From Blastocatellia bacterium (lineage in GTDB: Bacteria; Acidobacteriota; Blastocatellia; UBA7656), in assembly GCA_963765495.1 (NCBI GenBank), contig CAVXWP010000007.1, forward strand, positions 768,001-832,000: a stretch of DNA of 64,000 bases, given 5' to 3'. The notes beneath the pieces are model-generated. The model was given only the letters and a program-made list of their open reading frames with translations. It was not told the DNA's origin and searched no databases. Below are positions 5,174 to 20,215 of this stretch, piece by piece (within the stretch, counting starts at the first letter, position 1; each line of letters begins with the position of its first letter). The position numbers and the translations under genes are program-made.

Positions 5174-5432
5174 TTCCAGTCGCCGTCTCTCAGGGCGTAA
5201 TAGATGAAGAGGGAGGGGCTTGCGGGTCCTGCCTGAAGGTCTTAATAGATTTAAAATTGCAAGGTTTTGGCTCATGACTCTTCCATGTCATGAAACAATT
5301 TACGAACAGGTGGGGTAGTACGGGTTTCAGCTGGCAGCTTATGACTCAGTGGAGCAATGAATCGAATAAATGCGCGCGGAATGCTCCGAGCCGGTCCGGG
5401 TTGCGGCTATGCAGTTAAGGAGAAATCAGAAA

Positions 5433-7688
5433 ATGAGGAAACTGGTCGCATATCTATTGACAGTGAGCCTGGCTTTATTTGGATCATTCCTGCTCGCTAC
5501 ATCGAATCAAACGAGCGTTCACGCGCAGGAGGCTGCGCCCGAACTCAACCGGATAGGGCCTGACACCATTGCCGCAGGCAGCCCTACATTTACCATCCGC
5601 CTCAAGGGAGCCAACTTCGCGGATGGAGCAACTGTACTGCTCGACGACGCGGCGCTTGACTCGTCGCGCACTTCGTCCAAGGGCAAGGTGCTTCTTGCCG
5701 ATATTGATGAGTCGGTAATTGCAAACCCCGGAACTCATACGATACAGGCGGTCAACCCTGATGGTATGCGCTCGGCAACTCTTACGCTTACAGTGGTTGA
5801 GCCGGACCCCGATATCGAATTTCAGCTCGAAGGCAACGCTGCCGAAGAAGACCTTGGCTTTGGTCTGGTAGTAGGGGCGAAGGGCGATGGTTTCAATGAG
5901 AATACGGCCGTCTTGATCTACGGCTCGGAATCCCCGAATATCGCCATAAACTCAAAAAACAGTCTCGATTTCGAGTTTTCGGGCGATTTTCTAAAAGACC
6001 CCGCTCGTGTTCCCGTAATGGCGCGCAATCGGGGCGGACGATATTCAAAAGCCGATATTTTCTTTGTCGTTCCGGCTCCGGCCATATTGCGTGTAATAGA
6101 CCCGGATTCGGTTGAGGTGGGAACCGAGGATTTCGACCTCACGATACGCGGCGATAATTTCAAAGACAATGCCCAGATTGTAATCAACGGCGAAGTGATC
6201 CCCACAACTACGCAGAAGGCAGGACGGCTCGAAGCAATTGTTCCGGGCCGGTTCAGAGAGCAACCCGGCGAATTGATTGTCCGCATTGTACAGGACGGCG
6301 TTCAATCCAGAGATGCGATTCTGCTTGTGGCTCCGACTAACGATCCTTTTATTACTTCGCTTGCTCCCGCGGTAATCCGTCAGGGAGAGAAGAAACCCAG
6401 GGTCAACATTACAGGCGCAAACTTCGGCAATAAGGTCACCGTTCTGCTTGATGGAGAGGAGGCCAACGTCAAACAATCCACGCGTAGAACGCTGGTCGTC
6501 GCCGTAGACCCTGTTGTGAATGACGTTGGTGTTCACACTCTACAGGTCATAGACGAGAACGGAGTGGTATCGGAAATCGTCTCATTCAGGGTCGTAGCTG
6601 ATGTAGCGGTAACTACGCTTGCCGGGGCCAAACGCGATGGCTTCAATAACGGCGAAACCTGCGTAACCACCGAAGAGGCGCTCTTTAGGCGACCGAGGCG
6701 GCTGGCCTTTGGCCCGGACGGGTTGCTCTATGTTACGGATCAACAAAATCACGCTATTCGAACCATAGACTTCAACGCCGATCAGGTCTGCACGCTCGTG
6801 GGGACCGGCTTTCCCGGTTACAGCGACTCGAATAATACGGCCGGGTTCGAACCGTCACTTTCCTATCCCAACGGAGTGGTGGTCGCAGACGACGGCACTG
6901 TATATGTCAGCGAGAACGGCAACAACGTGATACGCCGCATCCGCAGAAACGGCGACGACACCGTTACGGTCGATACATTCGCGGGCGAAAATCAGGATGT
7001 GACTCAAAAGGATCGGCAGAAGGAACTCAACGCAACGCTTAAGGGTGTCAGCGGATTCCGCGACGGCGACCCGCTGGATGCGGCGTTCCGCAAACCCGAT
7101 GATATGGTGATCGCCCCCGACGGATCATTGTATGTGGCTGACTCGCTAAACCACGCGATAAGAAGAATAAGTCTCCAGGGCAATAACACCGTAGTCGAAA
7201 CCATAGCCGGTAACGGCGTCCCCGGCTTTGCCGACGGAGTGGGCACAGCCGCGCGACTCAATACGCCGACGGGGCTTGCGCTCTCGCTTGACGGGACTCG
7301 ATTGTTCGTAGCCGATACGGGCAACCGCCGCATCCGAGCCATAGACCTGGTAAACGGCAATGTCTCTACCTTTGCCGGAAGCGGCAATAACGGAGGCGAT
7401 AACGGCTCTCCGGGGCAGGCCACGTTCCAGGACCCCATAGGTATTGCGGTCGACTCGGATGGAACTCTTTATGTCAGTGAATTCAGCGCCAATCGCATAC
7501 GCCGGATTGATCCGCAGGGCAATGTAAGCTCTCTTGCGGGGACCGGCAAATCGAAGAAACTCAAAGATGGAGCCGGTTCAAAGGCCACCTTCAACGGGCC
7601 GAGAGGTCTAGCCATAGATCGGGCAAACGGCATACTGTATGTCGCCGATTACGAGAACTTTCGCATTCGAGCAATAACGCTGCGATAA
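5433..7688 (+). CDS. Secreted IPT/TIG-repeat + NHL-repeat (beta-propeller) protein
   Basis: Signal peptide MRKLVAYLLTVSLALF with AAGGAG SD; several IPT-like units (ITSLAP..., GANF/GDNF); repeated NHL motifs (F..P.GLA...LYVAD..N..IR.I). Confidence 0.85.
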   Translation: MRKLVAYLLTVSLALFGSFLLATSNQTSVHAQEAAPELNRIGPDTIAAGSPTFTIRLKGANFADGATVLLDDAALDSSRTSSKGKVLLADIDESVIANPGTHTIQAVNPDGMRSATLTLTVVEPDPDIEFQLEGNAAEEDLGFGLVVGAKGDGFNENTAVLIYGSESPNIAINSKNSLDFEFSGDFLKDPARVPVMARNRGGRYSKADIFFVVPAPAILRVIDPDSVEVGTEDFDLTIRGDNFKDNAQIVINGEVIPTTTQKAGRLEAIVPGRFREQPGELIVRIVQDGVQSRDAILLVAPTNDPFITSLAPAVIRQGEKKPRVNITGANFGNKVTVLLDGEEANVKQSTRRTLVVAVDPVVNDVGVHTLQVIDENGVVSEIVSFRVVADVAVTTLAGAKRDGFNNGETCVTTEEALFRRPRRLAFGPDGLLYVTDQQNHAIRTIDFNADQVCTLVGTGFPGYSDSNNTAGFEPSLSYPNGVVVADDGTVYVSENGNNVIRRIRRNGDDTVTVDTFAGENQDVTQKDRQKELNATLKGVSGFRDGDPLDAAFRKPDDMVIAPDGSLYVADSLNHAIRRISLQGNNTVVETIAGNGVPGFADGVGTAARLNTPTGLALSLDGTRLFVADTGNRRIRAIDLVNGNVSTFAGSGNNGGDNGSPGQATFQDPIGIAVDSDGTLYVSEFSANRIRRIDPQGNVSSLAGTGKSKKLKDGAGSKATFNGPRGLAIDRANGILYVADYENFRIRAITLR

Positions 7689-7712
7689 TGAGTGGTTGGG
7701 AAGATAAGCTTT

Positions 7713-7748
7713 ATGGGCCGGGCTTTGTGCGCGGCCCATTCTCTTTCT
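7713..7748. terminator. Hairpin between convergent NHL and infA genes (probable terminator)
   Basis: ATGGGCCG...CGGCCCAT stem followed by a T-rich tract. Confidence 0.6.
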
Positions 7749-7790
7749 GGAGGTCCGTTTGTAGCGTCGAGTCGGTACTTTGAAACTCTG

Positions 7791-8012
7791 TTAGCTGCGA
7801 TGCCGATAGGTAATGCGCCCCTTGGTCAGGTCGTAAGGTGATAATTCCACAGTAACCCTGTCACCCGCCAGGACCTTGATGAAGTTTTTTCGCATCTTGC
7901 CCGATAGATGCGCCAGTATCTCGTGACCTTCGCCTATCTGCACTCGAAACGTGGCGTTTGGAAGAGACTCGACCACGACGCCTTCAACGGGGATCATATC
8001 GTCTTTCGGAAT
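7791..8012 (-). CDS. infA: Translation initiation factor IF-1
   Basis: Canonical IF-1 sequence ([16 protein letters not shown]...[37 protein letters not shown]). Start tentatively ATT at 8012 (MPKDDMI...); alternative ATG at 7997. Confidence 0.95.
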
Positions 8013-8387
8013 AGTAACACCCCCTTCTATTAATGGACTTTCTTAGATGACCTCAGGCCATCCGTGCGCCATGTCCTAAAGAATAGCGCAACACTTTAAT
8101 GGAGTCTATCGGCGAAGCCCAGAACTGAGCAATTGGCTGCCAGGTGGTAAGCCGTCTCGCCCTCAAGGCTATTCAGTTTTTGACCTGTGAACATCCGGCG
8201 TCAGTTGCATTAAAGGTTAATTTGAAGGAGAGGTAGGTTGAAACAGGTCGGGACGGACGCGATGAAATACCGTCACGCGGCTCCCCTTTTCAACAAGGGA
8301 TTTAACCACGCGCGGGCCTATAAACTGCGTGCCCCCTAGGATCAAATTCTGCAAGAGTTGCTCCCCCTCAATGCACGAGAAAACTTT

Positions 8388-8470
8388 GACAGGATCAACA
8401 AGATTAACAGGATTTACCGAGAACTCCGCTGAATTTTTTATAATTCTGCAAGCCCCGTCAAAAAATTCTG
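8388..8470. repeat. Degenerate 9-mer (ACAGGATTA-like) inverted repeat element
   Basis: TTGACAGGATCAACAAGATTAACAGGATTT with a weak inverted partner (AATTCTG...CCCGTCAA). Confidence 0.45.
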
Positions 8471-8497
8471 ACCCTAACTATAATAATACAAAATAAA

Positions 8498-8527
8498 TTT
8501 GACATTAATAGACTCATATTTTATGAT
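8498..8527 (+). promoter_or_regulatory. Sigma-70 promoter of the dnaJ-clpB unit with overlapping HAIR-like (HspR) inverted repeat
   Basis: TTGACA-N17-TATGAT; TTTGACA-N7-ACTCATA resembles the HAIR consensus CTTGAGT-N7-ACTCAAG. Confidence 0.65.
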
Positions 8528-8589
8528 CTTAGTGTTGCAGATTTCGTGGTAAGGAAAGAAATTCGGAAATTAGAGCGGAAATAGCCTTA

Positions 8590-9609
8590 ATGCCGGTCAA
8601 GTATAAAGATTATTACGAGATTCTGGGTGTCAAGCGCGAGGCGACTGAGGATCAGGTCAGGCAGGCTTTTCGGAGGCTTGCGCGCAAGTATCACCCGGAT
8701 GTGAATCCGGGCAATAACGCCGCCGAGGAGAAATTCAAAGAGATAAACGAAGCTTATGAGGTGCTTTCGGATGCGGATAAGCGCAGGCGATTTGACCGGC
8801 TCGGGGCGGATTGGAAGAACGGGGCGGATTTTACGCCTCCGCCCGGCTGGAGCCACATCAACATAGATTTTAACGGACGGAGCGAGCCTGCAAGCGGCGG
8901 CATCTTCAGCGATTTTTTTGAGTCACTTTTTGGAGGCGGTCGTCAGTCGCGGCAGGGCGAGGATCGAAGGTCAGGTAGAAACAAAGGGCAGGATGTTGAA
9001 ACAGAGATGGCAATCTCGCTTGAGGAGGCCCACCGGGGAGGGATTCACAGGATTACGCTTCAAGGGGGGCGGGCCTGTAGCGCGTGCAAAGGCACGGGGA
9101 ATGCAAACGGAGTAGTCTGTCCGGATTGTCGGGGTGCGGGACACGTATTGCGCCCCAAGACGATAGACGTAAACATCCCGCCGGGGGCGCGCGAAGGGGC
9201 TGTTATAAAAGTCCCCAGACAGGGGCATCGCGGTCCTACCGGGGGCGCGTCCGGTGATTTATACATAAAGCTGAGGATCAATCCTCACTCTGTTTTCACC
9301 GTGTCTGGTGACGACATCACCGCCGAAATCCCTGTCGCGCCCTGGGAGGCGGTGCTTGGAAGCCGTATAGAAGTCCCCACTATCGAGGGGAAAATAGAGA
9401 TGAAGATACCGGCAGGGTCGCAAGGCGGGCAACGGATGCGGCTCAGAGGACAGGGATTGAACAGGCGCGTGGGAGGGCGCGGCGATCAATACGTAAAGCT
9501 CAGGATCATAGTGCCCACAAGCCCTACGGAAAAAGAGAAACGTCTCTTTCAAGAGATGGCGGAAACGACTCGTTTCAATCCGCGCAGTGGGTGGAGGGGT
9601 GACACGTGA
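8590..9609 (+). CDS. DnaJ/CbpA-family J-domain co-chaperone with a two-motif zinc finger
   Basis: YKDYYEILGV...YHPDVN J-domain, FSDFFESLFGG, two CxxCxGxG motifs, DnaJ C-terminal domain (APWEAVLG...VPT). Confidence 0.92.
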   Translation: MPVKYKDYYEILGVKREATEDQVRQAFRRLARKYHPDVNPGNNAAEEKFKEINEAYEVLSDADKRRRFDRLGADWKNGADFTPPPGWSHINIDFNGRSEPASGGIFSDFFESLFGGGRQSRQGEDRRSGRNKGQDVETEMAISLEEAHRGGIHRITLQGGRACSACKGTGNANGVVCPDCRGAGHVLRPKTIDVNIPPGAREGAVIKVPRQGHRGPTGGASGDLYIKLRINPHSVFTVSGDDITAEIPVAPWEAVLGSRIEVPTIEGKIEMKIPAGSQGGQRMRLRGQGLNRRVGGRGDQYVKLRIIVPTSPTEKEKRLFQEMAETTRFNPRSGWRGDT

Positions 9610-9716
9610 TGCGCTCGATGATGCGTGATAGGTGATTGGTGACTTTCAGGCGGGTCACCTGTTAAAGGGATATTGCAAGATTGCTAAATCACGCATCACG
9701 CATCATCGAGCGTGTC
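9601..9716. repeat. Heptamer-arm inverted element (TGATGCG family)
   Basis: CGCTCGATGATGCGTGAT ... ATCACGCATCATCGAGCG inverted arms; contains the dnaJ TGA stop. Confidence 0.85.
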
Positions 9717-9737
9717 AACCGGGAGGTAAAAGAACAG

Positions 9738-12338
9738 ATGGATATAAATCGTTTTACTGAGAAGGCACAGGAGGCTGTTCGCTCTGCTCAAACGCTGGCC
9801 ACGAGGTACAGCAATCAGCAGATCGAGGTAGAGCATCTCTTGCTTGCGCTGCTTGAACAACCGGGTGGACTTGTCCCCTCGGTGCTCACAAGAGCGGGCG
9901 TCAATGTAGAGCCTCTCATGCAGGCCATTGAAACCGAAATCAACCGATTCCCAAAGGTCGGCGGGCCGAGCGGGCCTGTGGATCAGGTCTATATTACTGC
10001 CCGGCTGAACAAGACCTTTGTGCGGGCCGAAGATGAGGCCAAAAAACTCACTGACGAATACATAAGCGTAGAGCATTTATTGCTGGCGATCATAGATGAA
10101 GGCGGCCCGGCCTCGCGCGCGCTAAAGACGGCGGGGGCGACACGCGACCGCATAATGAAGGCGCTGGTCGAGGTTCGAGGCCATCAGCGTGTGACCTCGC
10201 AAAACCCCGAGGCGACTTATCAAGCTCTGGAGCGTTACGGACGTGATCTGACAAGAATGGCCGCCAAGGGTAAACTCGACCCCGTAATTGGTCGCGACGA
10301 CGAAATACGGCGCGTCATCCAGGTGCTTTCGCGCCGCACAAAGAATAACCCCGTGCTGATAGGCGAGCCTGGCGTAGGCAAGACCGCTATAGTAGAGGGC
10401 CTTGCGCAACGGATCATTCGCGGCGACGTGCCTGAAAGTCTCAAGGACAAAAAGATAGTGGCGCTCGATATGGGCGCGCTCGTGGCCGGGGCAAAGTATC
10501 GCGGCGAGTTCGAGGAACGACTCAAGGCTGTGCTGAAAGAGATTCAGGAATCCGAAGGCGAGTATCTTCTCTTTATTGATGAGATGCACACCATTGTAGG
10601 CGCAGGGGCGGCCGAAGGCGCTATGGATGCTTCAAACCTGCTGAAGCCCATGCTCGCGCGGGGCGAACTGCATTGCATAGGCGCTACCACGCTCAGTGAA
10701 TATCGCAAGCACGTCGAGAAAGACGCGGCGCTTGAACGCCGTTTCCAGCCCGTGCTGGTCGATCAGCCTACGGTTGAAGACACAATCTCGATTCTCAGAG
10801 GACTGCGCGAACGTTATGAAGTCCATCACGGCGTACGCATAAAAGACGCGGCGCTTGTGGCGGCGGCTGTGCTTTCGAACAGATATATCACGGATCGGTT
10901 TTTGCCCGACAAGGCCATTGACCTTGTCGATGAGGCGGCAGCCAAGCTCCGCACCGAGATTGATTCGATGCCTGCCGAGTTGGATGAGAGCCTGCGCCGC
11001 ATTATGCAGCTTGAGATCGAGCGCGAAGCGCTCAAGAAAGAGACCGATACCGCATCGAAAGAACGTCTGAGCAAGCTCGAAAAAGAGCTTGCCAATCTGA
11101 GGGCCAACGCCGATCAGCTAAAGGCACAATGGCAGGCCGAAAAGGAAGAGGTGCAGAAGGTCCGCGCCATACGCGAAGAGATCGAGCAGACCCGCGTGGC
11201 GATAGAGCAGGCCGAGCGCGAGTATGATCTCAATCGCGCCGCCGAACTCCGTTACGGCAAGCTCAATCAGCTTGAGAAGCAGTTAATTGAGTACGAAGAG
11301 GCTCACGACAAACAGGCGGGTCGCACTCGTCTGCTCAAGGAAGAGGTTGATGAAGAGGACATAGCCGAGGTGGTCAGCCGATGGACGGGTGTGCCCGTGT
11401 CGAAGTTGCTCGAAGGCGAGCTTCAAAAGCTGCTATCGCTCGAAGAGCACCTGCATCGCCGCGTGATCGGACAGGATGAGGCTGTCAGCGCGGTCAGTGA
11501 CGCCGTCATACGCGCCCGTTCGGGACTCAAAGACCCGAATCGCCCGATAGGTTCATTCATCTTTCTGGGGCCTACGGGGGTGGGCAAGACCGAACTTGCG
11601 CGCGCGCTCGCGGAATTTCTTTTCGACGACGAGCACGCGATGATCCGCATAGACATGTCCGAGTATCAGGAGAAGCACACCGTAGCCCGACTGATAGGCG
11701 CGCCTCCGGGATATGTAGGCTATGAGGAAGGCGGGCAATTGACGGAAGCCGTCAGGCGACGTCCCTATTCGGTCCTGCTTTTTGACGAGATAGAAAAAGC
11801 TCACCACGATGTATTCAACGTGCTGCTTCAGATACTCGACGACGGCAGGCTGACGGATGGGCAGGGACGGATCGTGAATTTCAAAAACGCGATCATCATC
11901 ATGACATCGAATATCGGAAGCCACCTGATACTCGATTACAGCGGGCAGATGGAAGGCGAGCGATACGAACAGATGAAGGCGAGCGTGCTCGATGCGCTGC
12001 GTCATCATTTCAGACCCGAGTTCCTCAACCGGGTGGATGAGATCATAGTCTTCCACTCGCTCACGGAAGAAGACCTGAAGCAGATCGTAGAGATTCAGCT
12101 TGCGCGGTTGCGCTCCCGGCTTTCGGAGCGAAGAATAACTCTGGAGTTGAGCGAAGAGGCGAAGGCGCACATCGCACGAGCGGGTTACGATCCCGTTTAT
12201 GGAGCGCGCCCGTTGAAGCGCGCCATTCAGCGCGAGATCGAAACGCCTCTGTCGCGTCTGATACTGAAAGGCGATGTCAAAGACAACTCCGTCATGAAGA
12301 TTGACATGAAGGATGGCGCAGTAACTTTTGAGGGATGA
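9738..12338 (+). CDS. clpB: ATP-dependent disaggregase ClpB
   Basis: Two AAA+ modules ([16 protein letters not shown]), coiled-coil middle domain, [13 protein letters not shown] and [13 protein letters not shown]; start MDINRFT with GGGAGG SD. Confidence 0.97.
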
Positions 12339-12496
12339 AATAAGGGATGAGGGATGAGGGATGAAGGATGAAAAGGACTCTGAGGGATTATTCTGATAAA
12401 GAGCATGCTGGTTTTAATCAAGCAATTGCGCAAAACTCTTTTTCATCCCTCATCCCTCATCCCTCATCCCTCCTGAGTCCTTCATCCTTCATCCTT
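12331..12496. repeat. Heptamer-arm inverted element (GGATGAG / CTCATCC family)
   Basis: (GGGATGA)n left arm, (TCATCCC)n right arm; contains the clpB TGA stop. Confidence 0.9.
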
Positions 12497-12700
12497 TCTT
12501 TGGTATGATATTGGCACTGACGTTTGACAAAAGAAAGACGAACGGACGCTTACCTTGATGATGGAGAACCCATCGTGCTTAAAGAGTTCTTCCCAAATGA
12601 GGATGGACCTTTACAACCTGGACGCGCACAGGTCAGATCAATAGACCCGCCGCCCGGACGCAGGCGCTATGCAGGCAAATCTGGCGGGTAATTAAGGAGG

Positions 12701-13849
12701 ATGGGCAAAATAATGATCTCTTACGAAAACATACGCCATTTACAACAATTTCCATCCGGTCCCGATTCTCAGGTGCTCTCTTTATATGTGAATGTGGACC
12801 AGTCAGAGGCGGCCAACCTCAATCGCGGTTTTGAGACGGTGGTTGAAAATCTGTTTCGCCGTATGGGGGAAGATATAACTTCGAGCGGGAGCGACAGACA
12901 TAGACTCGATATCGAGTGCAAGCGTGTGCTTGAATTTCTCAAAGACTACACGCCGAAAGGAGTGGGACTGGTCGTATTCAGCGACTCGAAACACGATTTA
13001 TGGTGGCAGAGGGATTTGCAGGTAAATGTGGAGACCGAAGGCCGATGGTCTCCGCAGCCCTGGGTCAGGCCCCTGCTCGAGCTTCTGGAAGATCACGATC
13101 ATTTCGGCGTCGTGCTGATCGACAAACAGCACGCGAAGATTCTCACGGTTGACGCGACCGGAATCAATCAGCACGCCGATATACAGTCGGATGTGCCGAA
13201 TAAACACGCGACCACGGGCACTGATCATATCTGGTCGCAAACTCAGATGGACCGCGACCACACCAAACACATCAAGTGGTACGCGAAGCGCGTGGCCGAT
13301 GAGCTTGCCGCCGTAGTTGACGGCAATAAAATCACTCGTTTGGTCATAGGCGGTCCCGTCGAGGCGACTACGATATTCACGGGTGAGTTGCCCCGGCGGT
13401 TTCAGCAGATGATCATAGATACGATCTCGATTCCAATCGATGCCGGACACGAACGTCTTTCAAACGAATTACGAGCCATTCAGGAGAGGGCCGAACACGC
13501 CGATGAGTTCAAGCTGGTCGAATCCATGATCACGTCGGCTCATAAGGGCGACCGCGCGGTGCTTGGAATCTCAGAGACTCTTTCGTCCATCCAGGAGGGA
13601 AGAGTTCATGTAATGGTAGTCGCCAGAGAGTATCACGCGCAGGGCAAAGAGTGTGATAACTGTCGCGTGCTTACGGCAGACGGATTGGAGAAATGCTCTT
13701 TTTGCGGTGGAAAACTCGAACCGGCTCCCGACCTAATCAACCGGGCGTCTCACAAAGTATTAGATCAAGGTGGAAGGGTGCAGATTGTTTCAGGCGCGGC
13801 TGCCGACAGGCTCTCAGAGGCTGGCGTCGGCGCCGTGTTAAGATTCTAA
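12701..13849 (+). CDS. Bacterial archaeo-eukaryotic release factor 1-like protein (baeRF1/VLRF1-like, eRF1 domains 2-3, Zn ribbon)
   Basis: VLSLY N-terminus, RPLLELL...GVVLID core, VPNKH...WSQ loop where aRF1 has VPGKH.KGGQS, eRF1-domain-3 tail (AVLG...EGRV...CDNC...CSFC...GVGAVLRF). Start may be ATG 12713. Confidence 0.8.
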   Translation: MGKIMISYENIRHLQQFPSGPDSQVLSLYVNVDQSEAANLNRGFETVVENLFRRMGEDITSSGSDRHRLDIECKRVLEFLKDYTPKGVGLVVFSDSKHDLWWQRDLQVNVETEGRWSPQPWVRPLLELLEDHDHFGVVLIDKQHAKILTVDATGINQHADIQSDVPNKHATTGTDHIWSQTQMDRDHTKHIKWYAKRVADELAAVVDGNKITRLVIGGPVEATTIFTGELPRRFQQMIIDTISIPIDAGHERLSNELRAIQERAEHADEFKLVESMITSAHKGDRAVLGISETLSSIQEGRVHVMVVAREYHAQGKECDNCRVLTADGLEKCSFCGGKLEPAPDLINRASHKVLDQGGRVQIVSGAAADRLSEAGVGAVLRF

Positions 13850-13853
13850 TTTA

Positions 13854-13916
13854 GGGGCCGGGGGTCGGGGGCCAGTTGCGAAATCAATCGCTCACCGGCC
13901 CCCGGCCCCCGGCCCC
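13854..13916. repeat. Heptamer-arm inverted element (GGGGCCR family), short
   Basis: GGGGCCG-GGGGTCG-GGGGCCA ... CCGGCCC-CCGGCCC-CCGGCCCC. Confidence 0.85.
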
Positions 13917-13926
13917 AGGAGAAAAT

Positions 13927-14553
13927 ATGGCATTGATACCGACGGTTGTTGAGACCTCTAACAGGGGCGAGCGGCATTACGACATTTACTCGAAGTTGCT
14001 TAGAGACCACATAATCTTTATCGGCACTCCGATCACCGAAGTCGTTGCCAACATCATCGTGGCCGAATTGCTCTTTCTTGAATCGGAAGACCCTGACCGC
14101 GACATATCGCTTTACATAAACAGCCCCGGAGGCTCGATAACGGCGGGTCTTGCTGTCTATGACACCATGCGATTTATCAGGCCCGACATCATGACGATCT
14201 GCATGGGGCAAGCCGCGTCTATGGCGGCCGTATTGCTTGCGTCGGGGACGAAGGGGAAGCGCTTTTCGCTGCCTCATTCGAGAATTCTCATACACCAGCC
14301 CTCTATGGAGGGGCTTGCCGGACAGGCGACTGACATCAATATCTATGCCGAAGAGATATTGCGAATGAGGAATCTGCTGTCACAGGTAATGGCCGATTCC
14401 ACCGGCCAGCCGTTCGAAAAGATTGACCGTGATGTGGAGCGCGATTTCATATTAAGCCCAACGGAGGCCGTCGAGTACGGTCTCATTGACACCGTGCTCT
14501 CGAAACGCGATCTCGACAAGGGCACGGAAATGGGAGCAGGAGCAAATGGATAA
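13927..14553 (+). CDS. clpP: ATP-dependent Clp protease proteolytic subunit
   Basis: IPTVVE...[16 protein letters not shown], catalytic Ser (GQAASM), His (IHQP), Asp (ERDF); AGGAG SD before ATG 13927. Confidence 0.95.
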
Positions 14554-14921
14554 TGGCAAGAAGTAGAAAGATATTTATCGAGCGACTCAGCAACGAGGTG
14601 TCTTATCGCCGCCCGAGCGGTCCGCTATGGCAGCCTGCCGCCGACATCTATCGATCCCCCGAAGGCTGGAAGATCAAATTCGATCTCGCGGGAGTCAAAC
14701 CCGAAGATGTGCAGGTGCTCATAGCAAATGACAACACGCTCATAGTGCGAGGCGTCAGGCGCGATTCGATAATGACGGAAGGTTGGAGCTATCATCAACT
14801 CGAAATCACCTACAGCCGGTTTGAGCGAGTCTTTAAGATACCCTGTGATCTTCCGCAGGCTGAGATACGAAACGAGTGCAGGGACGGCTGGTTTCTTCTG
14901 CACATTGATTGCAAAGGCTAG
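14553..14921 (+). CDS. Hsp20/alpha-crystallin small heat-shock protein
   Basis: WQPAADIY...DLAGVKPEDV...LIVRGVR...QLEITYSRFER...DGWF; ATG overlaps the clpP TAA (TAATG). Confidence 0.88.
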   Translation: MARSRKIFIERLSNEVSYRRPSGPLWQPAADIYRSPEGWKIKFDLAGVKPEDVQVLIANDNTLIVRGVRRDSIMTEGWSYHQLEITYSRFERVFKIPCDLPQAEIRNECRDGWFLLHIDCKG

Positions 14922-14975
14922 ACTTCAAACATGTCTCTTTTGGCCGATCAAGTCTGAGACCAGGGGAATACAAGG

Positions 14976-17381
14976 ATGACAGAGAATAAAACGTTGGAAT
15001 TACCGATATTACCGCTACGCAATACAGTGATATTTCCGTCCGGCATATCTCCACTGACCGTCGGACGACCGTTGTCGCTTGCCGCGGCCGAGGCGGCGCT
15101 CAATACGGAGGAGAAACTGCTCGGAGTGGTTGCGCAACGCGAGGATGGAGACGGAGAGCTTTCGCCGGCCAATCTTTATAAGATAGGCACGCTCGTTGTC
15201 ATAAACCGCATGATGCGCTCGCCGGGCGCTGAGAACGTCCTGCATCTGATCGTTCAGGGGCAGGAGCGCATACGAATAATAGGCTTTATCGAACAGGACC
15301 CTTACCTCAAGGCCACGGTCGAGATAATGCCGGAAGTGACCCGCGAAGAATCGCCCGAAGTCGAGGCGCTCCGCCGCAATATCAACGCGCTTGTGCAGAA
15401 GGCGCTCACGCTCCTGCCAAACGTGCCAAACGAGATAAGAAGCATAATTCTCGGGGCCGACGATTCGGTGCGGCTCTCCTATTTTCTGGCCTCGGTGCTT
15501 GAGCTTGAAACCGAGCAGGAGCAGGCCTTGCTCGAAGCCTCCACGGAGGGCGATTTGCTGCGGCTCATGCACACATACCTTGCCCGTGAAGTCGAGGTGC
15601 TCGATATTCGCAGCAAGATCGCCAATCAGGCGCAGGAAGAACTGGGCAAGACTCAGCGCGATTATATCCTGCGCGAGCAGATGAAGCAGATTCAAAAAGA
15701 GCTTGGCGAAACCGAACCCGAGCAGGCCGAAGCGGCCCTGATGCGCGAGCGCATAGAGAAGGCCGACCTGCCGGAAGACGTGCGCACCGAGGCCGAACGC
15801 GAATTGCGCAGGCTCGAACGCCTGCCCGCCGCCGCGCCAGATTATCACGTCATAAGAACCTATCTGGAATGGATACTCGATCTGCCGTGGAATGTGTCTA
15901 CCGAAGACACCCTCGATCTGAACCGCGCCCGCGAGGTGCTCGATGAAGACCACTATGATCTTGACGACATCAAGGAGCGGATACTCGAACACCTCGCCGT
16001 GATAAAACTCAACCCCGCGACAAAAGCACCGATCCTTTGTTTCGTAGGCCCGCCGGGCGTCGGCAAAACGAGTCTGGGGCAATCCGTTGCGCGATCTATG
16101 GGGCGCAAATTCGAACGCATGTCGCTTGGCGGCGTGCGCGACGAGGCCGAACTTCGCGGACATCGCCGGACTTACATCGGCGCTCTGCCCGGACGCATAG
16201 TTCAGGCGCTCAGGCGCGCGGGCGTCAACAACCCTGTGATGATGCTCGATGAAGTTGACAAGCTGGGAATGGATTTTCGTGGCGATCCCTCTTCGGCATT
16301 GCTTGAGATTCTGGACCCGGCTCAGAACTTCTCGTTCCGCGATCATTACCTCGACCTGCCGTTCGATCTGTCAAAGGTCTTCTTTATAGCGACGGCAAAC
16401 TCGCTGGCCCCGATACCTCCGGCCCTGCGCGACCGCATGGAGATCATAGGGCTTTCCGGCTACAGCGAAGAAGAGAAGCTTCACATCGCAAAGCGGTATC
16501 TGGTTCCGCGCCAGATAAAAGAATCTGGTCTCGGCGAAGAACAGCTTCACATCACCGATGAGGCGCTTCAGGCGCTGATCGCCCGTTACACTCGCGAGGC
16601 GGGCGTGCGGCAACTGGAGCGCACCGTTGGCCGTCTTGCCCGCAAGATCGCGCTCAAGGTCGCGCAGGAGAAGGGAGATGTGTTTACCATCACGCCTGAT
16701 GATCTTGAAGAGTATCTGGGGCACGAGAAGTTCTTCCACGAGATGGCGCGAGACATATTGCCGCCGGGCGTGGCTACCGGGCTTGCCGTGACCGATATGG
16801 GCGGCGAGGTGCTCTTTATCGAAGCCACGTTGCTGCCCGGCGCAAAGGGTCTGACGCTCACCGGGCAACTGGGCGAAGTGATGCAGGAATCGGCTAGAGC
16901 GGCTCACGCTTATCTCTGGTCGCACTCGAAAGAGCTTGGGTTCGACTGCATGCAATTTGACAAGAACGGCGTGCATCTGCACGTCCCGGCGGGCGCTATC
17001 CCGAAGGATGGTCCATCGGCAGGCGTAGCGATAGTCTCTGCGCTAGCCTCATTGTGCACGGGCCGCCCTGTCAGAAGCGATACGGCAATGACGGGCGAAA
17101 TCACTCTGAGCGGGCTGGTCTTTCCCGTAGGCGGAATCAAGGGCAAGGTGCTTGCCGCTCGCCGTGCAGGCATAAAACGTGTGATCCTGCCCAAGCGAAA
17201 CGAGCACGATCTGAAGGACATTCCCGAAGAGACCCTGCGCGACCTTGAGATACACTTCGTCGAGCGCATAAGTGATCTGTTGAAATTGACTCTCACCGAT
17301 GAAACACAGATGCCGAATCTGGTGAGCGGCGTGGAAGAGCCGGTTCCCGCCGGGAGCGAAGTCAGCTTCGACAGCCAATAA
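14976..17381 (+). CDS. lon: ATP-dependent Lon protease
   Basis: LPILPLRNTVIFP N-domain, GPPGVGKTS, RGHRRTYIGALPG, PKDGPSAG catalytic Ser and downstream Lys. Confidence 0.97.
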   Translation: MTENKTLELPILPLRNTVIFPSGISPLTVGRPLSLAAAEAALNTEEKLLGVVAQREDGDGELSPANLYKIGTLVVINRMMRSPGAENVLHLIVQGQERIRIIGFIEQDPYLKATVEIMPEVTREESPEVEALRRNINALVQKALTLLPNVPNEIRSIILGADDSVRLSYFLASVLELETEQEQALLEASTEGDLLRLMHTYLAREVEVLDIRSKIANQAQEELGKTQRDYILREQMKQIQKELGETEPEQAEAALMRERIEKADLPEDVRTEAERELRRLERLPAAAPDYHVIRTYLEWILDLPWNVSTEDTLDLNRAREVLDEDHYDLDDIKERILEHLAVIKLNPATKAPILCFVGPPGVGKTSLGQSVARSMGRKFERMSLGGVRDEAELRGHRRTYIGALPGRIVQALRRAGVNNPVMMLDEVDKLGMDFRGDPSSALLEILDPAQNFSFRDHYLDLPFDLSKVFFIATANSLAPIPPALRDRMEIIGLSGYSEEEKLHIAKRYLVPRQIKESGLGEEQLHITDEALQALIARYTREAGVRQLERTVGRLARKIALKVAQEKGDVFTITPDDLEEYLGHEKFFHEMARDILPPGVATGLAVTDMGGEVLFIEATLLPGAKGLTLTGQLGEVMQESARAAHAYLWSHSKELGFDCMQFDKNGVHLHVPAGAIPKDGPSAGVAIVSALASLCTGRPVRSDTAMTGEITLSGLVFPVGGIKGKVLAARRAGIKRVILPKRNEHDLKDIPEETLRDLEIHFVERISDLLKLTLTDETQMPNLVSGVEEPVPAGSEVSFDSQ

Positions 17382-17404
17382 ACTTTGGGCAAGCTTTGAT
17401 TGAT

Positions 17405-17434
17405 TGTAGGGCAGCCCTTGTGGCTGCCCTTACA
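17405..17434. terminator. GTAG-type REP-like palindrome / bidirectional terminator
   Basis: TGTAGGGCAGCC-CTTGT-GGCTGCCCTTACA between convergent lon and the phosphatase gene. Confidence 0.65.
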
Positions 17435-17444
17435 TTTGTATTGC

Positions 17445-19055
17445 TTATTCGACTGAAATGACTATGAGCGTGGCATCATCCTGGAAATGGCCGTCGCTGA
17501 AATCGGCGACGGCTGTCAGGATTTTATCTTGAAGCTCGGAGGCGCAAAGCTCTCTGTTTTTCAGGAGCAGGCTGATCAACCGATCCTCTCCAAACTCCTC
17601 ATCCTTTGAATTGATGGCCTCGGTCACGCCATCCGTATAAAGCATTATTCTGTCGCCTGAGCCCAGCTTTACTTCGGCCTGCTCATAAGTCCAGCCCGGC
17701 AGCGGCCCGAGCAGCGCGCCTCCCTCTTCAAGCCTCACGATTGACCCGTCGCGGCGAACCAGAATCGGCGCGTTGTGACCGGCATTTGTGTATACAAGCG
17801 ATCCCGCTTCGGAATCGAGCAGCGAATAAAAGAGAGTGATGAATCTATCCGAAGCCGTGTTGCTGCAAATGATTCGATTGACCTTTTCGCAAAGCTCGCG
17901 AGGCGCGGCCTCTGCCGATGCAAATGCCTTTACAGCGGCCTGTACGTTCGACATAAGCAGGGCAGCGGGCATGCCTTTGCCCGATACGTCTGCGACGGCA
18001 AGCGCCGCCTTTGTCTCGTTAAATTTCAGCACGTCATAATAATCTCCGCTCACGGAGCGCGCCGGAAGCCAGGAGCCCGAAATCTCGTATCCCCGGATTT
18101 GCGGAATGGTTCTGGGCAGCAACCCCTGCTGAATCTGACGGGCCTCTTGAAATTCCTGATCCTGTCCGCGCAATCGCAGGTTATCCATGCTGATGCCCAG
18201 CGCATCGCCTATCGCGGCCAGAAACTTCATGTCCTCTTCATCAAACGGTTCGTCGGTGATCTTGCTTCCCAGACTGATAAAGCCGAGCAACTCGCCTTTG
18301 AGCCTTATCGGAACAAGCATCTCGGCCAGGGCCCGCCGAAGCTTGTTCCTTTCATCTTCCGACAGATCGACCTCGCGCGCGTCAAAGATCGTCTCCATAT
18401 GTTTGAGCAGCAGGCACTCGGACGCGAATTTCAACCTGCCTACGATCTCGTCGGATAGCCCGACCGTTGAGGCGGCCTCGAATGCCTCGTTTGCGGTTGT
18501 GCGCGTAAAGACCACGACCGCGCGGCTTTGCAAGGCGCGCTGGATGTGCTCGGCAGCCATCTTGATCAGAACCTGTTGATCGGTGATTTCAAGCATCTCG
18601 CTTGAGAGCATCTTGCGCTCGGCCCTCAATCGCTGGCCCTTGCGCAGGGTCAGACCCTGTTCGATGTGCGTGCGTAGAATATTCAGGAGTCGAGCATTCT
18701 CCCACGGCTTTTGCACAAAGTCGCGCACGCCACGGCGCATAGCCTCTACGGCGAGATCAATCGTTCCCCACGCCGTCATGACTACTATGGGAAGAGAACT
18801 GTCGAGCGCCTGCACGCGGGAGAGCAGATCAAGCCCTTCCTGCCCCGATGTCGTATCGCGGGCATAATTTAGGTCCATAAGCAAAATATCGAAATGCCGC
18901 TCTTTCAACGCTTCAAGCACAGCCGAAGGCGAGGTTACGGTCTCGGTTTGAAACCCCTCGGATTTCAGCAGCAGATGAAGCGCCGCCAGCACATCCGGCT
19001 GGTCGTCGGCTATCAGTGTCCTCGGTCTAAAGAATTCGGTGCTGTTTACTGCCAT
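17445..19055 (-). CDS. Response regulator-GAF-SpoIIE/PP2C phosphatase (RsbU-like)
   Basis: REC (LIADDQ, LLMDLNY, QKPW), GAF-like middle, PP2C motifs (SGDYYD, ADVSGKG, NAGH, YTDGVTE, DDATL). Confidence 0.9.
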   Translation of the reverse strand: MAVNSTEFFRPRTLIADDQPDVLAALHLLLKSEGFQTETVTSPSAVLEALKERHFDILLMDLNYARDTTSGQEGLDLLSRVQALDSSLPIVVMTAWGTIDLAVEAMRRGVRDFVQKPWENARLLNILRTHIEQGLTLRKGQRLRAERKMLSSEMLEITDQQVLIKMAAEHIQRALQSRAVVVFTRTTANEAFEAASTVGLSDEIVGRLKFASECLLLKHMETIFDAREVDLSEDERNKLRRALAEMLVPIRLKGELLGFISLGSKITDEPFDEEDMKFLAAIGDALGISMDNLRLRGQDQEFQEARQIQQGLLPRTIPQIRGYEISGSWLPARSVSGDYYDVLKFNETKAALAVADVSGKGMPAALLMSNVQAAVKAFASAEAAPRELCEKVNRIICSNTASDRFITLFYSLLDSEAGSLVYTNAGHNAPILVRRDGSIVRLEEGGALLGPLPGWTYEQAEVKLGSGDRIMLYTDGVTEAINSKDEEFGEDRLISLLLKNRELCASELQDKILTAVADFSDGHFQDDATLIVISVE

Positions 19056-19074
19056 AGATTTGTTTCGCTTATCA

Positions 19075-19179
19075 GTGATGCGTGGTTCGTGATGCGTGAT
19101 CCGTGACTCTAATGCAATTAGCTGTTTACAGGTTCATCACTCGCCTCATAAATCACGCATCACGATTTACGCATCACGA
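19075..19179. repeat. Heptamer-arm inverted element (TGATGCG family)
   Basis: GTGATGC-GTGGTTC-GTGATGC-GTGATCC ... TCACGCA-TCACGAT-TTACGCA-TCACGAA. Confidence 0.85.
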
Positions 19180-19180
19180 A

Positions 19181-19795
19181 CTAACCTCCCATCACAACCT
19201 GGATAGGGGCGCTCAATTTCAAGGTGCCCCAGGAGACCCAAAGCGTCGCTTCTTTGGTGTTTCCCTTTGGAGCCGAGAGCAGGATAGTCAGTTTCTCTTC
19301 TTTCTGATCGGATTTCTCAATCGCCATCGGGACTTTGAATTCGATTGGGGCGCTGTCGATCTCGAATGCGTCCTTGTGCGCGTTTCGCGCCTTGACCGGG
19401 TCGATGAAGGCCAGGCTCCACGTCTTTCCATCTTCCGATCTGTAGAGGCCGAGATAGTAGATGCCCGGCGCGATATCTTTTCCGCCGATCTTCAACGCAA
19501 TGTTGGTATCCAGCACGGTCCAGAAATTGTTCCCCATCCGCCACGTCTTGCCGTTCGTCATGGCGTCGAACTTGGCTGTGTCTTCATAAGCCGTCTTCCA
19601 GGCAGGGCGACCATAATTGACGGCGAATTCGCCTGCGGCTCCATTTTTCTGCTGATCCCAATAGAGTATCCGGGTCGAACCCCGCTCGTCGGGAGCAGGG
19701 CTGGTAAACTCTGCGATGGGAGATTTCGCCTCCTGAGCCAGAATCGTTGATGCCAGACAAAACAGTATTGCAAGTGCCAGACTTGTTTTCTTCAT
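19181..19795 (-). CDS. Secreted DUF2911-like protein
   Basis: Signal peptide; VNYGRP...WRMGNN...APGIYYL pattern typical of DUF2911. Confidence 0.7.
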   Translation of the reverse strand: MKKTSLALAILFCLASTILAQEAKSPIAEFTSPAPDERGSTRILYWDQQKNGAAGEFAVNYGRPAWKTAYEDTAKFDAMTNGKTWRMGNNFWTVLDTNIALKIGGKDIAPGIYYLGLYRSEDGKTWSLAFIDPVKARNAHKDAFEIDSAPIEFKVPMAIEKSDQKEEKLTILLSAPKGNTKEATLWVSWGTLKLSAPIQVVMGG

Positions 19796-19840
19796 CTTCT
19801 TAATCCTTTCAGACGTGTATATCCCTGATCGGTTATTCGC

Positions 19841-20215
19841 TCAATGGGCCTTCCAGGTGAACCTGTAATTTCCAGTGGCGTTTTCCATAACGACTTCCAG
19901 GGTCCACACTCCGGCAAGCGGTTTCATCTCTCCCGTGTTGAGAGTGATATTGCCGCCAGTGCAATGCCCGTTTAGCCTCGCTTCGCCTTTCGGATCGCGC
20001 AGATACCATTCGACCGCGCCCGACCTCACCTTGCCTTTTACCTCTAACCGCGCGGTCATCATCGACTCCGCCACATCGAAAGTGTATTTCGCCGTATCGG
20101 TCTTATCCTGGAAACTATATGACTCTTCCTGATCGGCACGAGATTGCGAATAAACGCTCAAGGTTAATGCGCTCAACACCGCAAACAGGATAGCAGACTT
20201 ACAAACTCTTTTCAT
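19841..20215 (-). CDS. Hypothetical secreted protein
   Basis: Signal-peptide-like N-terminus (MKRVCKSAILFAVL), CAGGAG SD, beta-rich body. Confidence 0.7.
   Translation of the reverse strand: MKRVCKSAILFAVLSALTLSVYSQSRADQEESYSFQDKTDTAKYTFDVAESMMTARLEVKGKVRSGAVEWYLRDPKGEARLNGHCTGGNITLNTGEMKPLAGVWTLEVVMENATGNYRFTWKAH

Follow-up and report, generated by a model that had tools for sequence, protein, structure and literature searches.

Introduction

Balon proteins are ribosome hibernation factors, described as Msmeg1130 and Rv2629 in mycobacteria and as Balon in Psychrobacter urativorans (PDB 8v9j/8v9l, 8v9k and 8rd8; Helena-Bueno et al. 2024, PMC10901736). The main text of that study gives Hsp20, DnaK and DnaJ as gene neighbours of Balon and describes Msmeg1130 as acting in hibernation, with the peptidyl-transferase centre left inert. 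Here, we describe a relative of these proteins that is encoded within a chaperone and protease gene cluster of a Blastocatellia bacterium belonging to the Acidobacteriota. The window, i.e. the whole stretch of DNA that was analysed, comprises 64,000 nucleotides (assembly GCA_963765495.1, contig CAVXWP010000007.1, positions 768,001 to 832,000 of the forward strand). The cluster consists of the co-oriented genes dnaJ, clpB, an aeRF1-like gene (hereafter called the factor), clpP, hsp20 and lon.

Bacterial aeRF1-like proteins of the baeRF-1 type were treated by Burroughs and Aravind (2019, PMC6514570). The main text of that work describes a linkage of baeRF-1 genes to HPF genes and remarks on a conserved Gln in family 10, which is named potentially catalytic and could be a hydrolase. 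ClpB, Hsp20 and ClpP have 0 occurrences in this main text, and no chaperone or protease linkage is given there for baeRF-1. ClpB and ClpP are also absent from the main text of PMC10901736, the supplements of which may list such neighbours. Among the papers listed in a literature search, none joined Balon with ClpB, ClpP, Hsp20 or HspR.

The first-pass annotation of the window knew of no characterised operon with the gene composition of the cluster. This holds for ClpB and ClpP as far as the main text of the Balon study is concerned, but not for Hsp20, DnaK and DnaJ, which have been printed beside Balon genes. The neighbours of the factor differ from the printed ones by including ClpB, ClpP and Lon. 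The factor is an extension of a known pattern rather than a new system. We consider it rather probable that it is a stress-induced, non-catalytic, Balon-like occupant of the ribosomal A site, which would park ribosomes and would be made together with the machinery for protein clean-up. New in this study are the operons found in Chloroflexota, natural variants of the cluster without the factor, a promoter motif at three genome sites and corrected gene starts.

Family affiliation and predicted structure of the factor

The factor gene is located on the forward strand (12713-13849) and encodes a protein of 378 amino acids, which is also the length of the database copy. Its start was corrected from 12701 to the ATG at 12713, ahead of which AAGGAGG is kept in 12 of 12 syntenic loci. 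The protein matched PF18854 (baeRF_family10) with 101.3 bits (cut-off 27.1, E = 7.3e-29), the best value among six aeRF1-type families. By the Pfam threshold the factor is therefore a member of baeRF-1 family 10, for which 2423 cluster representatives were obtained at E ≤ 1e-3, and it carries the conserved Gln of this family (S175-Q176). Weaker Pfam matches were found to baeRF families 2 and 12, eRF1_2 (32 bits), eRF1_3 and acVLRF1.

Used as a single query, the factor had its best PDB sequence match in Msmeg1130, to which it aligns end to end (E = 1.7e-6); the two proteins are about 20% identical. A profile built from 51 family members matched Msmeg1130 with an E-value of 1.6e-37, the archaeal release factor aRF1 (4af1) with 5.7e-25 and Rv2629 with 4e-14, while P. 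urativorans Balon was matched in its N domain only (2.8e-7). The AlphaFold2 (AF2) model of the factor has a mean predicted local distance difference test (pLDDT) value of 93.4. When this model was compared with known structures using Foldseek, ribosome-bound Msmeg1130 gave a template modelling (TM) score of 0.81, followed by P. urativorans Balon (0.66-0.70) and aRF1/eRF1 (about 0.55; 0.55 for 4af1). Model and matches to Balon and aRF1 indicate an architecture of an N domain, a middle domain with RNase-H fold and a Pelota-like C domain with an insert. The HMM search and the match to Msmeg1130 in both sequence and structure confirm the membership in the aeRF1 superfamily that had been proposed for the protein.

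The factor shares with Balon the three-domain aeRF1-like fold and the absence of NIKS and GGQ, but it has kept a Gln two residues past the GGQ position. It further differs from Balon in an invariant G-x-D-H-x-x-S-Q loop and in its C domain, where a Zn ribbon is located at the site of the Cys-less, EF-Tu(GDP)-binding beta-hairpin of Balon. The ribbon (C-x2-C-x12-C-x2-C) was found in 120/120 close homologs and in 110 of 129 family representatives; the aligned segment of Msmeg1130 contains no Cys. According to the main text of Burroughs and Aravind (2019, PMC6514570), the hairpin of Balon is possibly a degenerate Zn ribbon. The N domain of Balon contacts the decoding centre by an HP motif, and a string check, at the level of the dipeptide only, found no His-Pro in residues 1-120 of the factor.

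The full-length profile alignment with aRF1, which includes the Zn ribbon of the C domain, is a likeness to the archaeal release factor. In contrast to aRF1, NIKS and GGQ are absent from the factor sequence, and the NIKS segment of aRF1 aligns to an unconserved stretch. These differences set the factor apart from class-I release factors. It is the single aeRF1-like gene of the genome, in which the HPF gene is located elsewhere, and the host presumably has its own bacterial release factors.

Conserved loop of the middle domain and the question of catalysis

The middle-domain loop of the factor reads H165-ATTGTDHIWSQ176-TQMDR181, and the pattern H-x-TTG[TS]DHI[WM]SQ..M.R was present in all 120 close homologs. 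Of the 129 family representatives, 93 have S175, 90 have Q176 and 118 have the R that comes after them. Many family members read GGWSQ at this position. In the clade of the factor this is replaced by TTGTDHIWSQ, by which the Gly-Gly is lost.

These features raise the question whether the factor catalyses release. If so, it would enter heat-stalled 70S or 50S particles, hydrolyse or cleave peptidyl-tRNA via the S-Q loop and hand the chains over to ClpP, Lon, ClpB and Hsp20. The conservation of S175 and Q176 and the invariance of the loop among close homologs are in line with such a function, as are the alignment with aRF1 over its full length and the two protease genes directly downstream of the factor. 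In addition, GG.SQ is found in 21 of 129 representatives and resembles the GGxSQ that VLRF-1 proteins of archaea and actinobacteria carry, and family 10 has been named potentially active (PMC6514570, main text).

Nevertheless, we regard this explanation as unlikely. Besides the loss of Gly-Gly (now TTG), four residues are inserted ahead of S-Q in the factor clade. The Gln aligns two residues past the Gln of the aRF1 GGQ, and in the AF2 model the S-Q pair already belongs to the long helix, as part of its first turn, and is not at a loop tip. The Gln aligned to Q176 is also present in Msmeg1130, which nonetheless leaves the peptidyl-transferase centre inert according to the main text of PMC10901736. 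Moreover, chaperone-linked homologs without the Gln exist. Those of the type of locus L141 have neither the G...SQ loop nor the Zn ribbon, and the homolog at L131 has the loop GGWAA and is missing the C domain. Catalysis can therefore not be the shared role of the chaperone-linked homologs. The first-pass annotation had suggested that the factor may free or park stalled ribosomes. Parking fits the nearest relatives, the Balon proteins; release does not hold as a shared role, given the missing GGQ and the linked homologs that are devoid of the Gln.

Family 10 belongs to the same superfamily as Vms1/ANKZF1 and VLRF-1, with the GG[W/x]SQ variant of the loop as a further likeness. The acVLRF1 profile matched the factor with 22.6 bits, which is below the cut-off of 27.1 bits and leaves the factor outside the Vms1-like VLRF-1 proteins. 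Neither the N-terminal extension of VLRF-1 nor a Cdc48-binding motif or another partner is evident, and the factor keeps N and C domains of the aRF1 type. An extended form of the catalytic explanation, which appears even less probable to us, would make family 10 as a whole an active, stop-codon-independent peptidyl-tRNA hydrolase deployed by heat-shock regulons to remove nascent chains from heat-stalled ribosomes and pass them on to ClpP, Lon, ClpB and Hsp20, a bacterial counterpart, under heat stress, of Vms1-type release and distinct from Balon hibernation. The Zn-ribbon C domain (EF-Tu delivery) and the G...SQ loop would then have been kept because family 10 is still active. Whether this family, the baeRF-1 family closest to aRF1, retains release activity is a point of real interest.

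The cluster with and without the factor in Blastocatellia

The order of genes from an NHL-repeat gene to lon is syntenic in 11 of 11 related Blastocatellia loci from metagenome-assembled genomes, one of which is devoid of dnaJ and clpP. Of 36 genomes of the family, 30 have an ortholog of the factor with 58-70% identity; of five sister-family genomes, none has one. Among the 18 genomes with both positions listed, 17 carry the ortholog and the cluster-type lon on one contig.

The factor is absent from several related clusters. Within the same family, these have the gene orders dnaJ-clpB-clpP-hsp20-lon (L155) and dnaJ-clpB-hsp20-lon (L146), and in the sister family clpB-clpP-hsp20-lon (L149 and L150). 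In more distant families of the class, hsp20-lon is all that is found at five of six loci and lon at the remaining one (L151), again without the factor. This heat-shock cluster of soil Acidobacteria, which sister genomes carry without the factor, is older than the factor. The factor, along with a small open reading frame termed c11 that is described below, was either added to this older heat-shock cluster or lost from it several times. The previous proposal of a dedicated quality-control system built on the factor is not supported, since sister genomes have the chaperone and protease genes together but not the factor.

Promoters, repeats and transcription units

The six cluster genes form, as predicted from promoters and hairpins, two units rather than one tight unit. 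A promoter scan detected the first promoter, P1, on the forward strand at 8499-8527 (TTGACA-17-TATGAT, 11 of 12 consensus positions). Its -35 box and spacer constitute a motif, TTGACA-N8-CTCA[TG]AT-TTTA, that is kept in 11 of 11 syntenic loci spanning this region and lies at 8499-8523 in the window. At no more than one mismatch, the motif occurs at three sites of the genome only, all of them 37-107 nt upstream of chaperone genes, namely dnaJ-clpB, a small heat-shock protein (sHSP) gene and dnaK-dnaJ-merR. The two sites outside the cluster were located at C7:722271 and C8:840260 in the genome motif scan. A null from the reversed genome is available only for up to two mismatches, at which 27 matches in the genome compare with 11 in the reversed sequence. 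In the sister family (L149 and L150), the motif is also found upstream of clpB or grpE-clpB.

HspR/HAIR heat-shock regulons occur in Actinobacteria and Deinococcus, and the consensus of the HspR-associated inverted repeat (HAIR) is CTTGAGT-N7-ACTCAAG. The genome resembles such regulons in having a dnaK-dnaJ-merR (hspR) operon, which ends with a MerR-family gene at C7:725.66-725.90 kb, and in the sequence cTTGACA-N7-ACTCA that lies over the -35 box of chaperone promoters. In contrast to these regulons, the literal HAIR consensus is unmatched in the cluster within three mismatches; three matches at three mismatches were obtained, none in the cluster and not above chance level. The P1 motif is only HAIR-like, and it is probably the operator of a HspR-type heat-shock repressor, binding of which is putative. 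The consensus of the controlling inverted repeat of chaperone expression (CIRCE) had 0 matches within the window. Across positions 7000-20000, no Rfam family reached its gathering score, and two palindromes gave the only sub-threshold look-alikes of hairpin families.

Between clpB and the factor there is a gap of 374 nt, which holds a palindrome and a second promoter-like site. The palindrome (12343-12471, without strand assignment) has 35-nt arms composed of GGGATGA heptamers, with a folding energy of -71 kcal/mol (z = -6.5), and is probably a terminator or a stabilising hairpin. It is a dispersed repeat, the 14-nt seed of which occurs 321 times in the genome. Relatives have their own, differing heptamer palindromes at the same place after clpB. 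The second site, P2, is an extended -10 promoter-like sequence (TGGTATGAT, 12501-12509, forward strand). Its counterpart TGCTA[TA]CAT precedes c11 in 8/8 relatives with this reading frame and precedes clpP in the factor-less genome L155.

The open reading frame c11 is intact in eight related loci (e.g. L004:9599-9931), where it lies between clpB and the factor and would encode an acidic protein of 103-120 amino acids. In the window, a C-terminal remnant is left at 12524-12634 on the forward strand (residues 74-110, the last 37 codons; tblastn identity 49%, E = 5e-5), and L009, L010 and L013 have c11 only in degenerate form or not at all. The predicted protein has no match in Pfam, and its nearest Atlas clusters contain only hypothetical proteins of Acidobacteriota. 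The nearest named Atlas lead was DUF2750 at 0.87, which we note as a lead only.

A further strong hairpin separates the factor from clpP (13854-13916, forward strand). It is GC-rich, comprises 20 bp with GGCCCCC heptamers and no U tract, and has a folding energy of -62.6 kcal/mol (z = -7.5). Strong hairpins between factor and clpP were observed at the same place in most syntenic loci. As the hairpin reaches the ribosome-binding site of clpP, no space is left for a separate clpP promoter. For this reason, clpP, hsp20 and lon would be transcribed through the factor gene.

The GGCCCCC heptamer repeat has 90 matches in the genome, and another heptamer palindrome is located at about 50606 of the window (C7:818606). 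Intergenic palindromes made of heptamer arrays look like a lineage-wide class of elements similar to repetitive extragenic palindromes (REP), with relatives having heptamers of their own.

Linkage to chaperone and protease genes in other lineages

The neighbourhoods of family-10 genes in other lineages were recorded in a tblastn-based census that is free of gene calls, with the open reading frame (ORF) of the factor pinned by HMM. A locus was labelled when dnaJ, dnaK, clpB, clpP, hsp20, lon or merR was present on the same strand within 6 kb. The Acidobacteriota sample comprises 59 loci from 60 of 92 places (90 of 401 genomes; one duplicate was dropped). For Chloroflexota, 41 loci were used, namely 40 of 66 places (62 of 301 genomes) and L015. 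The places were chosen by score and contig context, not randomly.

A labelled neighbour was found at 12 of 41 loci in Chloroflexota, where gene orders differ, and at 1 of 59 loci in other Acidobacteriota. For random positions and strands in the Blastocatellia genome, the value was 1.0%. A quick maximum-likelihood tree was calculated for 112 proteins, with branch support from Shimodaira-Hasegawa-like approximate likelihood ratio tests (SH-aLRT) only. The label requires at least 11 changes on this tree, at least five of which are forced by strongly supported branches. These results indicate that the link of family-10 genes to proteostasis genes is recurrent but facultative. The linkage expected by the first-pass annotation is thus found in Chloroflexota, at 12 of 41 loci compared with about 1% at random, but not in other Acidobacteriota, where 58 of 59 loci lack it.

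Two operon types of Chloroflexota were confirmed by Pfam, baeRF10-DnaJ-HtrA-MerR_2-sHSP-Lon-thioredoxin and DnaJ-MerR-Rhomboid-baeRF10-ClpB, the latter with a baeRF10 protein that has no C domain. Further loci of this phylum have three sHSP genes directly after the factor, or a dnaK or sHSP gene and an HPF-domain gene before it. The sole linked case in the Acidobacteriota sample, L049, stems from a second Blastocatellia lineage and has the order dnaK-dnaJ-PsiE-MerR_2-AhpC-Trx-clpB-DUF308-baeRF10. The other Acidobacteriota neighbourhoods comprise four loci with an HPF-domain protein directly upstream, six to seven with a resistance-nodulation-division (RND) efflux operon and, for the rest, housekeeping genes.

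Two types of proteins were noticed in the course of the census. In Chloroflexota, the DnaJ-MerR operon includes a gene for a two-domain family-10 protein of 263-270 amino acids, with the loop GGWAA and no C domain, that is flanked by clpB and the gene of a rhomboid protease (L131:9461-10252; also in G438 and G450). In L080 (8265-9353) and also in L084, L104 and L105, a 362-aa protein with a Ribosomal_S30AE (HPF) domain and a sigma-70 region 4/PhyR-like part is encoded directly upstream of the family-10 gene.

The census also bears on the possibility that the position of the factor is a genomic accident. The gene would then have landed in a permissive, repeat-rich spot and would encode a general hibernation factor of stationary phase or starvation, with no tie to the chaperones. 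In favour of an accident, the presence of the factor varies within an otherwise conserved cluster (absent from L146, L155, L149 and L150), heptamer palindromes lie on both sides of its gene, different neighbours accompany 58 of the 59 homologs from other Acidobacteriota, and the classic HPF linkage is seen at four loci instead. Yet family-10 genes of Chloroflexota are repeatedly linked to chaperones or proteases, with several different gene orders and far above the 1% null. In addition, the gene has been retained in 30 of 36 genomes of its family with 58-70% identity and an invariant loop, and the hairpin extending up to the clpP ribosome-binding site implies that the factor and clpP-hsp20-lon would have to share transcripts. 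We therefore judge an accident to be improbable.

Proposed role of the factor

The role favoured here, that of a Balon-like A-site occupant parking ribosomes, builds on the observed family membership, predicted fold, gene order, conservation and presence/absence variants. Stress induction, ribosome binding and absence of catalysis are properties predicted for the factor. In this role, the factor and c11 would have been added to an already existing heat-shock cluster in one Blastocatellia family, with clpB on one side and clpP on the other. The factor would probably be transcribed from P2 as the promoter of clpP-hsp20-lon, and read-through from the HspR-type promoter of dnaJ-clpB may also contribute. 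Under proteotoxic or heat stress it would be produced along with disaggregase, holdase and proteases and, in the manner of Balon, would occupy the A site of the ribosome but not hydrolyse peptidyl-tRNA. Translation would thereby be paused, the inflow of new chains lowered and the ribosomes shielded, while ClpB, DnaJ and Hsp20 together with ClpP and Lon clear damaged protein. A non-catalytic factor is favoured because of the loops of the L141 and L131 homologs, the Gln present in Msmeg1130 although it is a hibernation factor, and the loss of Gly-Gly.

Several points weigh against this role. Both induction and co-transcription of the factor are predictions from sequence. The P1 motif is absent at P2 and in the upstream region of the factor and, together with the strong palindrome after clpB, this leaves heat induction of the factor without sequence-level support. 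Six of the 36 family genomes and all five of the sister family have the cluster but not the factor, and linkage to chaperones or proteases is missing at the 58 Acidobacteriota loci mentioned above. The invariance of the loop in 120/120 close homologs is compatible both with RNA binding and with a chemical role, and family 10 was singled out as possibly catalytic in the main text of Burroughs and Aravind (2019, PMC6514570). Finally, the Zn ribbon replaces the EF-Tu hairpin, so that the EF-Tu(GDP) mode of Balon may not apply to the factor.

A Pelota/Dom34-type rescue or splitting factor, which would dissociate heat-stalled ribosomes non-catalytically with a GTPase, agrees with the three-domain aeRF1/Pelota fold, with Pelota structures among the significant Foldseek matches and with the Dom34-like relief of stalled ribosomes proposed as an option for baeRF-1 (PMC6514570, main text), but is very improbable, as these matches (TM ≤ 0.42) are far weaker than those to Balon and aRF1 and Pfam found no splitting ATPase or dedicated GTPase in the cluster.

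For a parking factor made with chaperones, a precedent in concept is Hsp15 (HslR) of E. coli, a heat-shock-induced protein that works on ribosomes and shares its regulation with chaperones (PMC9757039, abstract). Hsp15 differs from the factor in its S4-domain fold and in binding the 50S-peptidyl-tRNA complex, not the 70S A site. Should the factor be induced together with ClpB, ClpP, Hsp20 and Lon, bacteria would be shown to combine a translation brake with the removal of damaged protein within a single transcription unit. Balon-type hibernation, with its settings of cold, starvation and hypoxia, would then extend to heat and proteotoxic stress as well. Natural variants provide ready comparisons: the cluster exists in forms that have or lack the factor, and among linked homologs the Gln loop, the Zn ribbon or the entire C domain may be present or missing.

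Genes of the locus

Genes were called from an ORF listing and Pfam, by which all genes and strands given in the first-pass annotation were confirmed, including the divergent infA. The gene positions stood as well, except for the starts of the factor and of clpP.

The gene dnaJ (8590-9609, forward strand) encodes a J domain with HPD and a DnaJ_C domain, as found by Pfam and a motif check. It is of the CbpA type, because the Zn-finger match falls below the Pfam cut-off. The disaggregase gene clpB (9681-12338, forward strand) was identified by Pfam, contains two Walker A motifs and is 86-88% identical across the syntenic loci. ClpB was considered as a partner of ClpP in this cluster and rejected, since it has no ClpP-docking IGF/LGF loop.

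The start of clpP (13927-14553, forward strand; Pfam, Ser-His catalytic motifs present) was corrected from the TTG at 13876 to the ATG at 13927, from which the N-terminus MALIPTVVE is the same across loci. The TTG falls within the -62.6 kcal/mol hairpin. The small heat-shock protein gene hsp20 (14553-14921, forward strand; Pfam) is coupled to clpP by TAATG as proposed before, with a real overlap of 1 nt. The gene lon (14976-17381, forward strand; Pfam) has a Walker A motif and the Ser-Lys dyad, and the cluster-type lon is 80-87% identical across the family.

A second clpP, 66% identical to that of the cluster, is located at 24.8 kb of C8, 1.5 kb upstream of another lon. Because of this second clpP and the further lon elsewhere in the genome, clpP and lon of the cluster are extra copies. 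In total, the genome has three lon genes, four dnaJ-like genes and further sHSP genes.

On the upstream side, infA (IF-1; 7791-7997, reverse strand; Pfam eIF-1a, E = 4.3e-27) is divergent from the cluster; a second copy at C7:667704 brings the genome to two copies in all. An NHL-repeat/TIG protein of 772 amino acids (5370-7688, forward strand) is syntenic with the cluster. It is found in 10 of 11 related loci, though with an identity of only 51-57%; the locus L009 begins inside clpB.

On the downstream side, a response regulator-GAF-SpoIIE (PP2C phosphatase) gene (17445-19055, reverse strand) is convergent on lon. It may encode a partner-switching regulator tied to lon. In two distant Blastocatellia loci (L151 and L152), a homolog of this gene adjoins hsp20-lon or lon.

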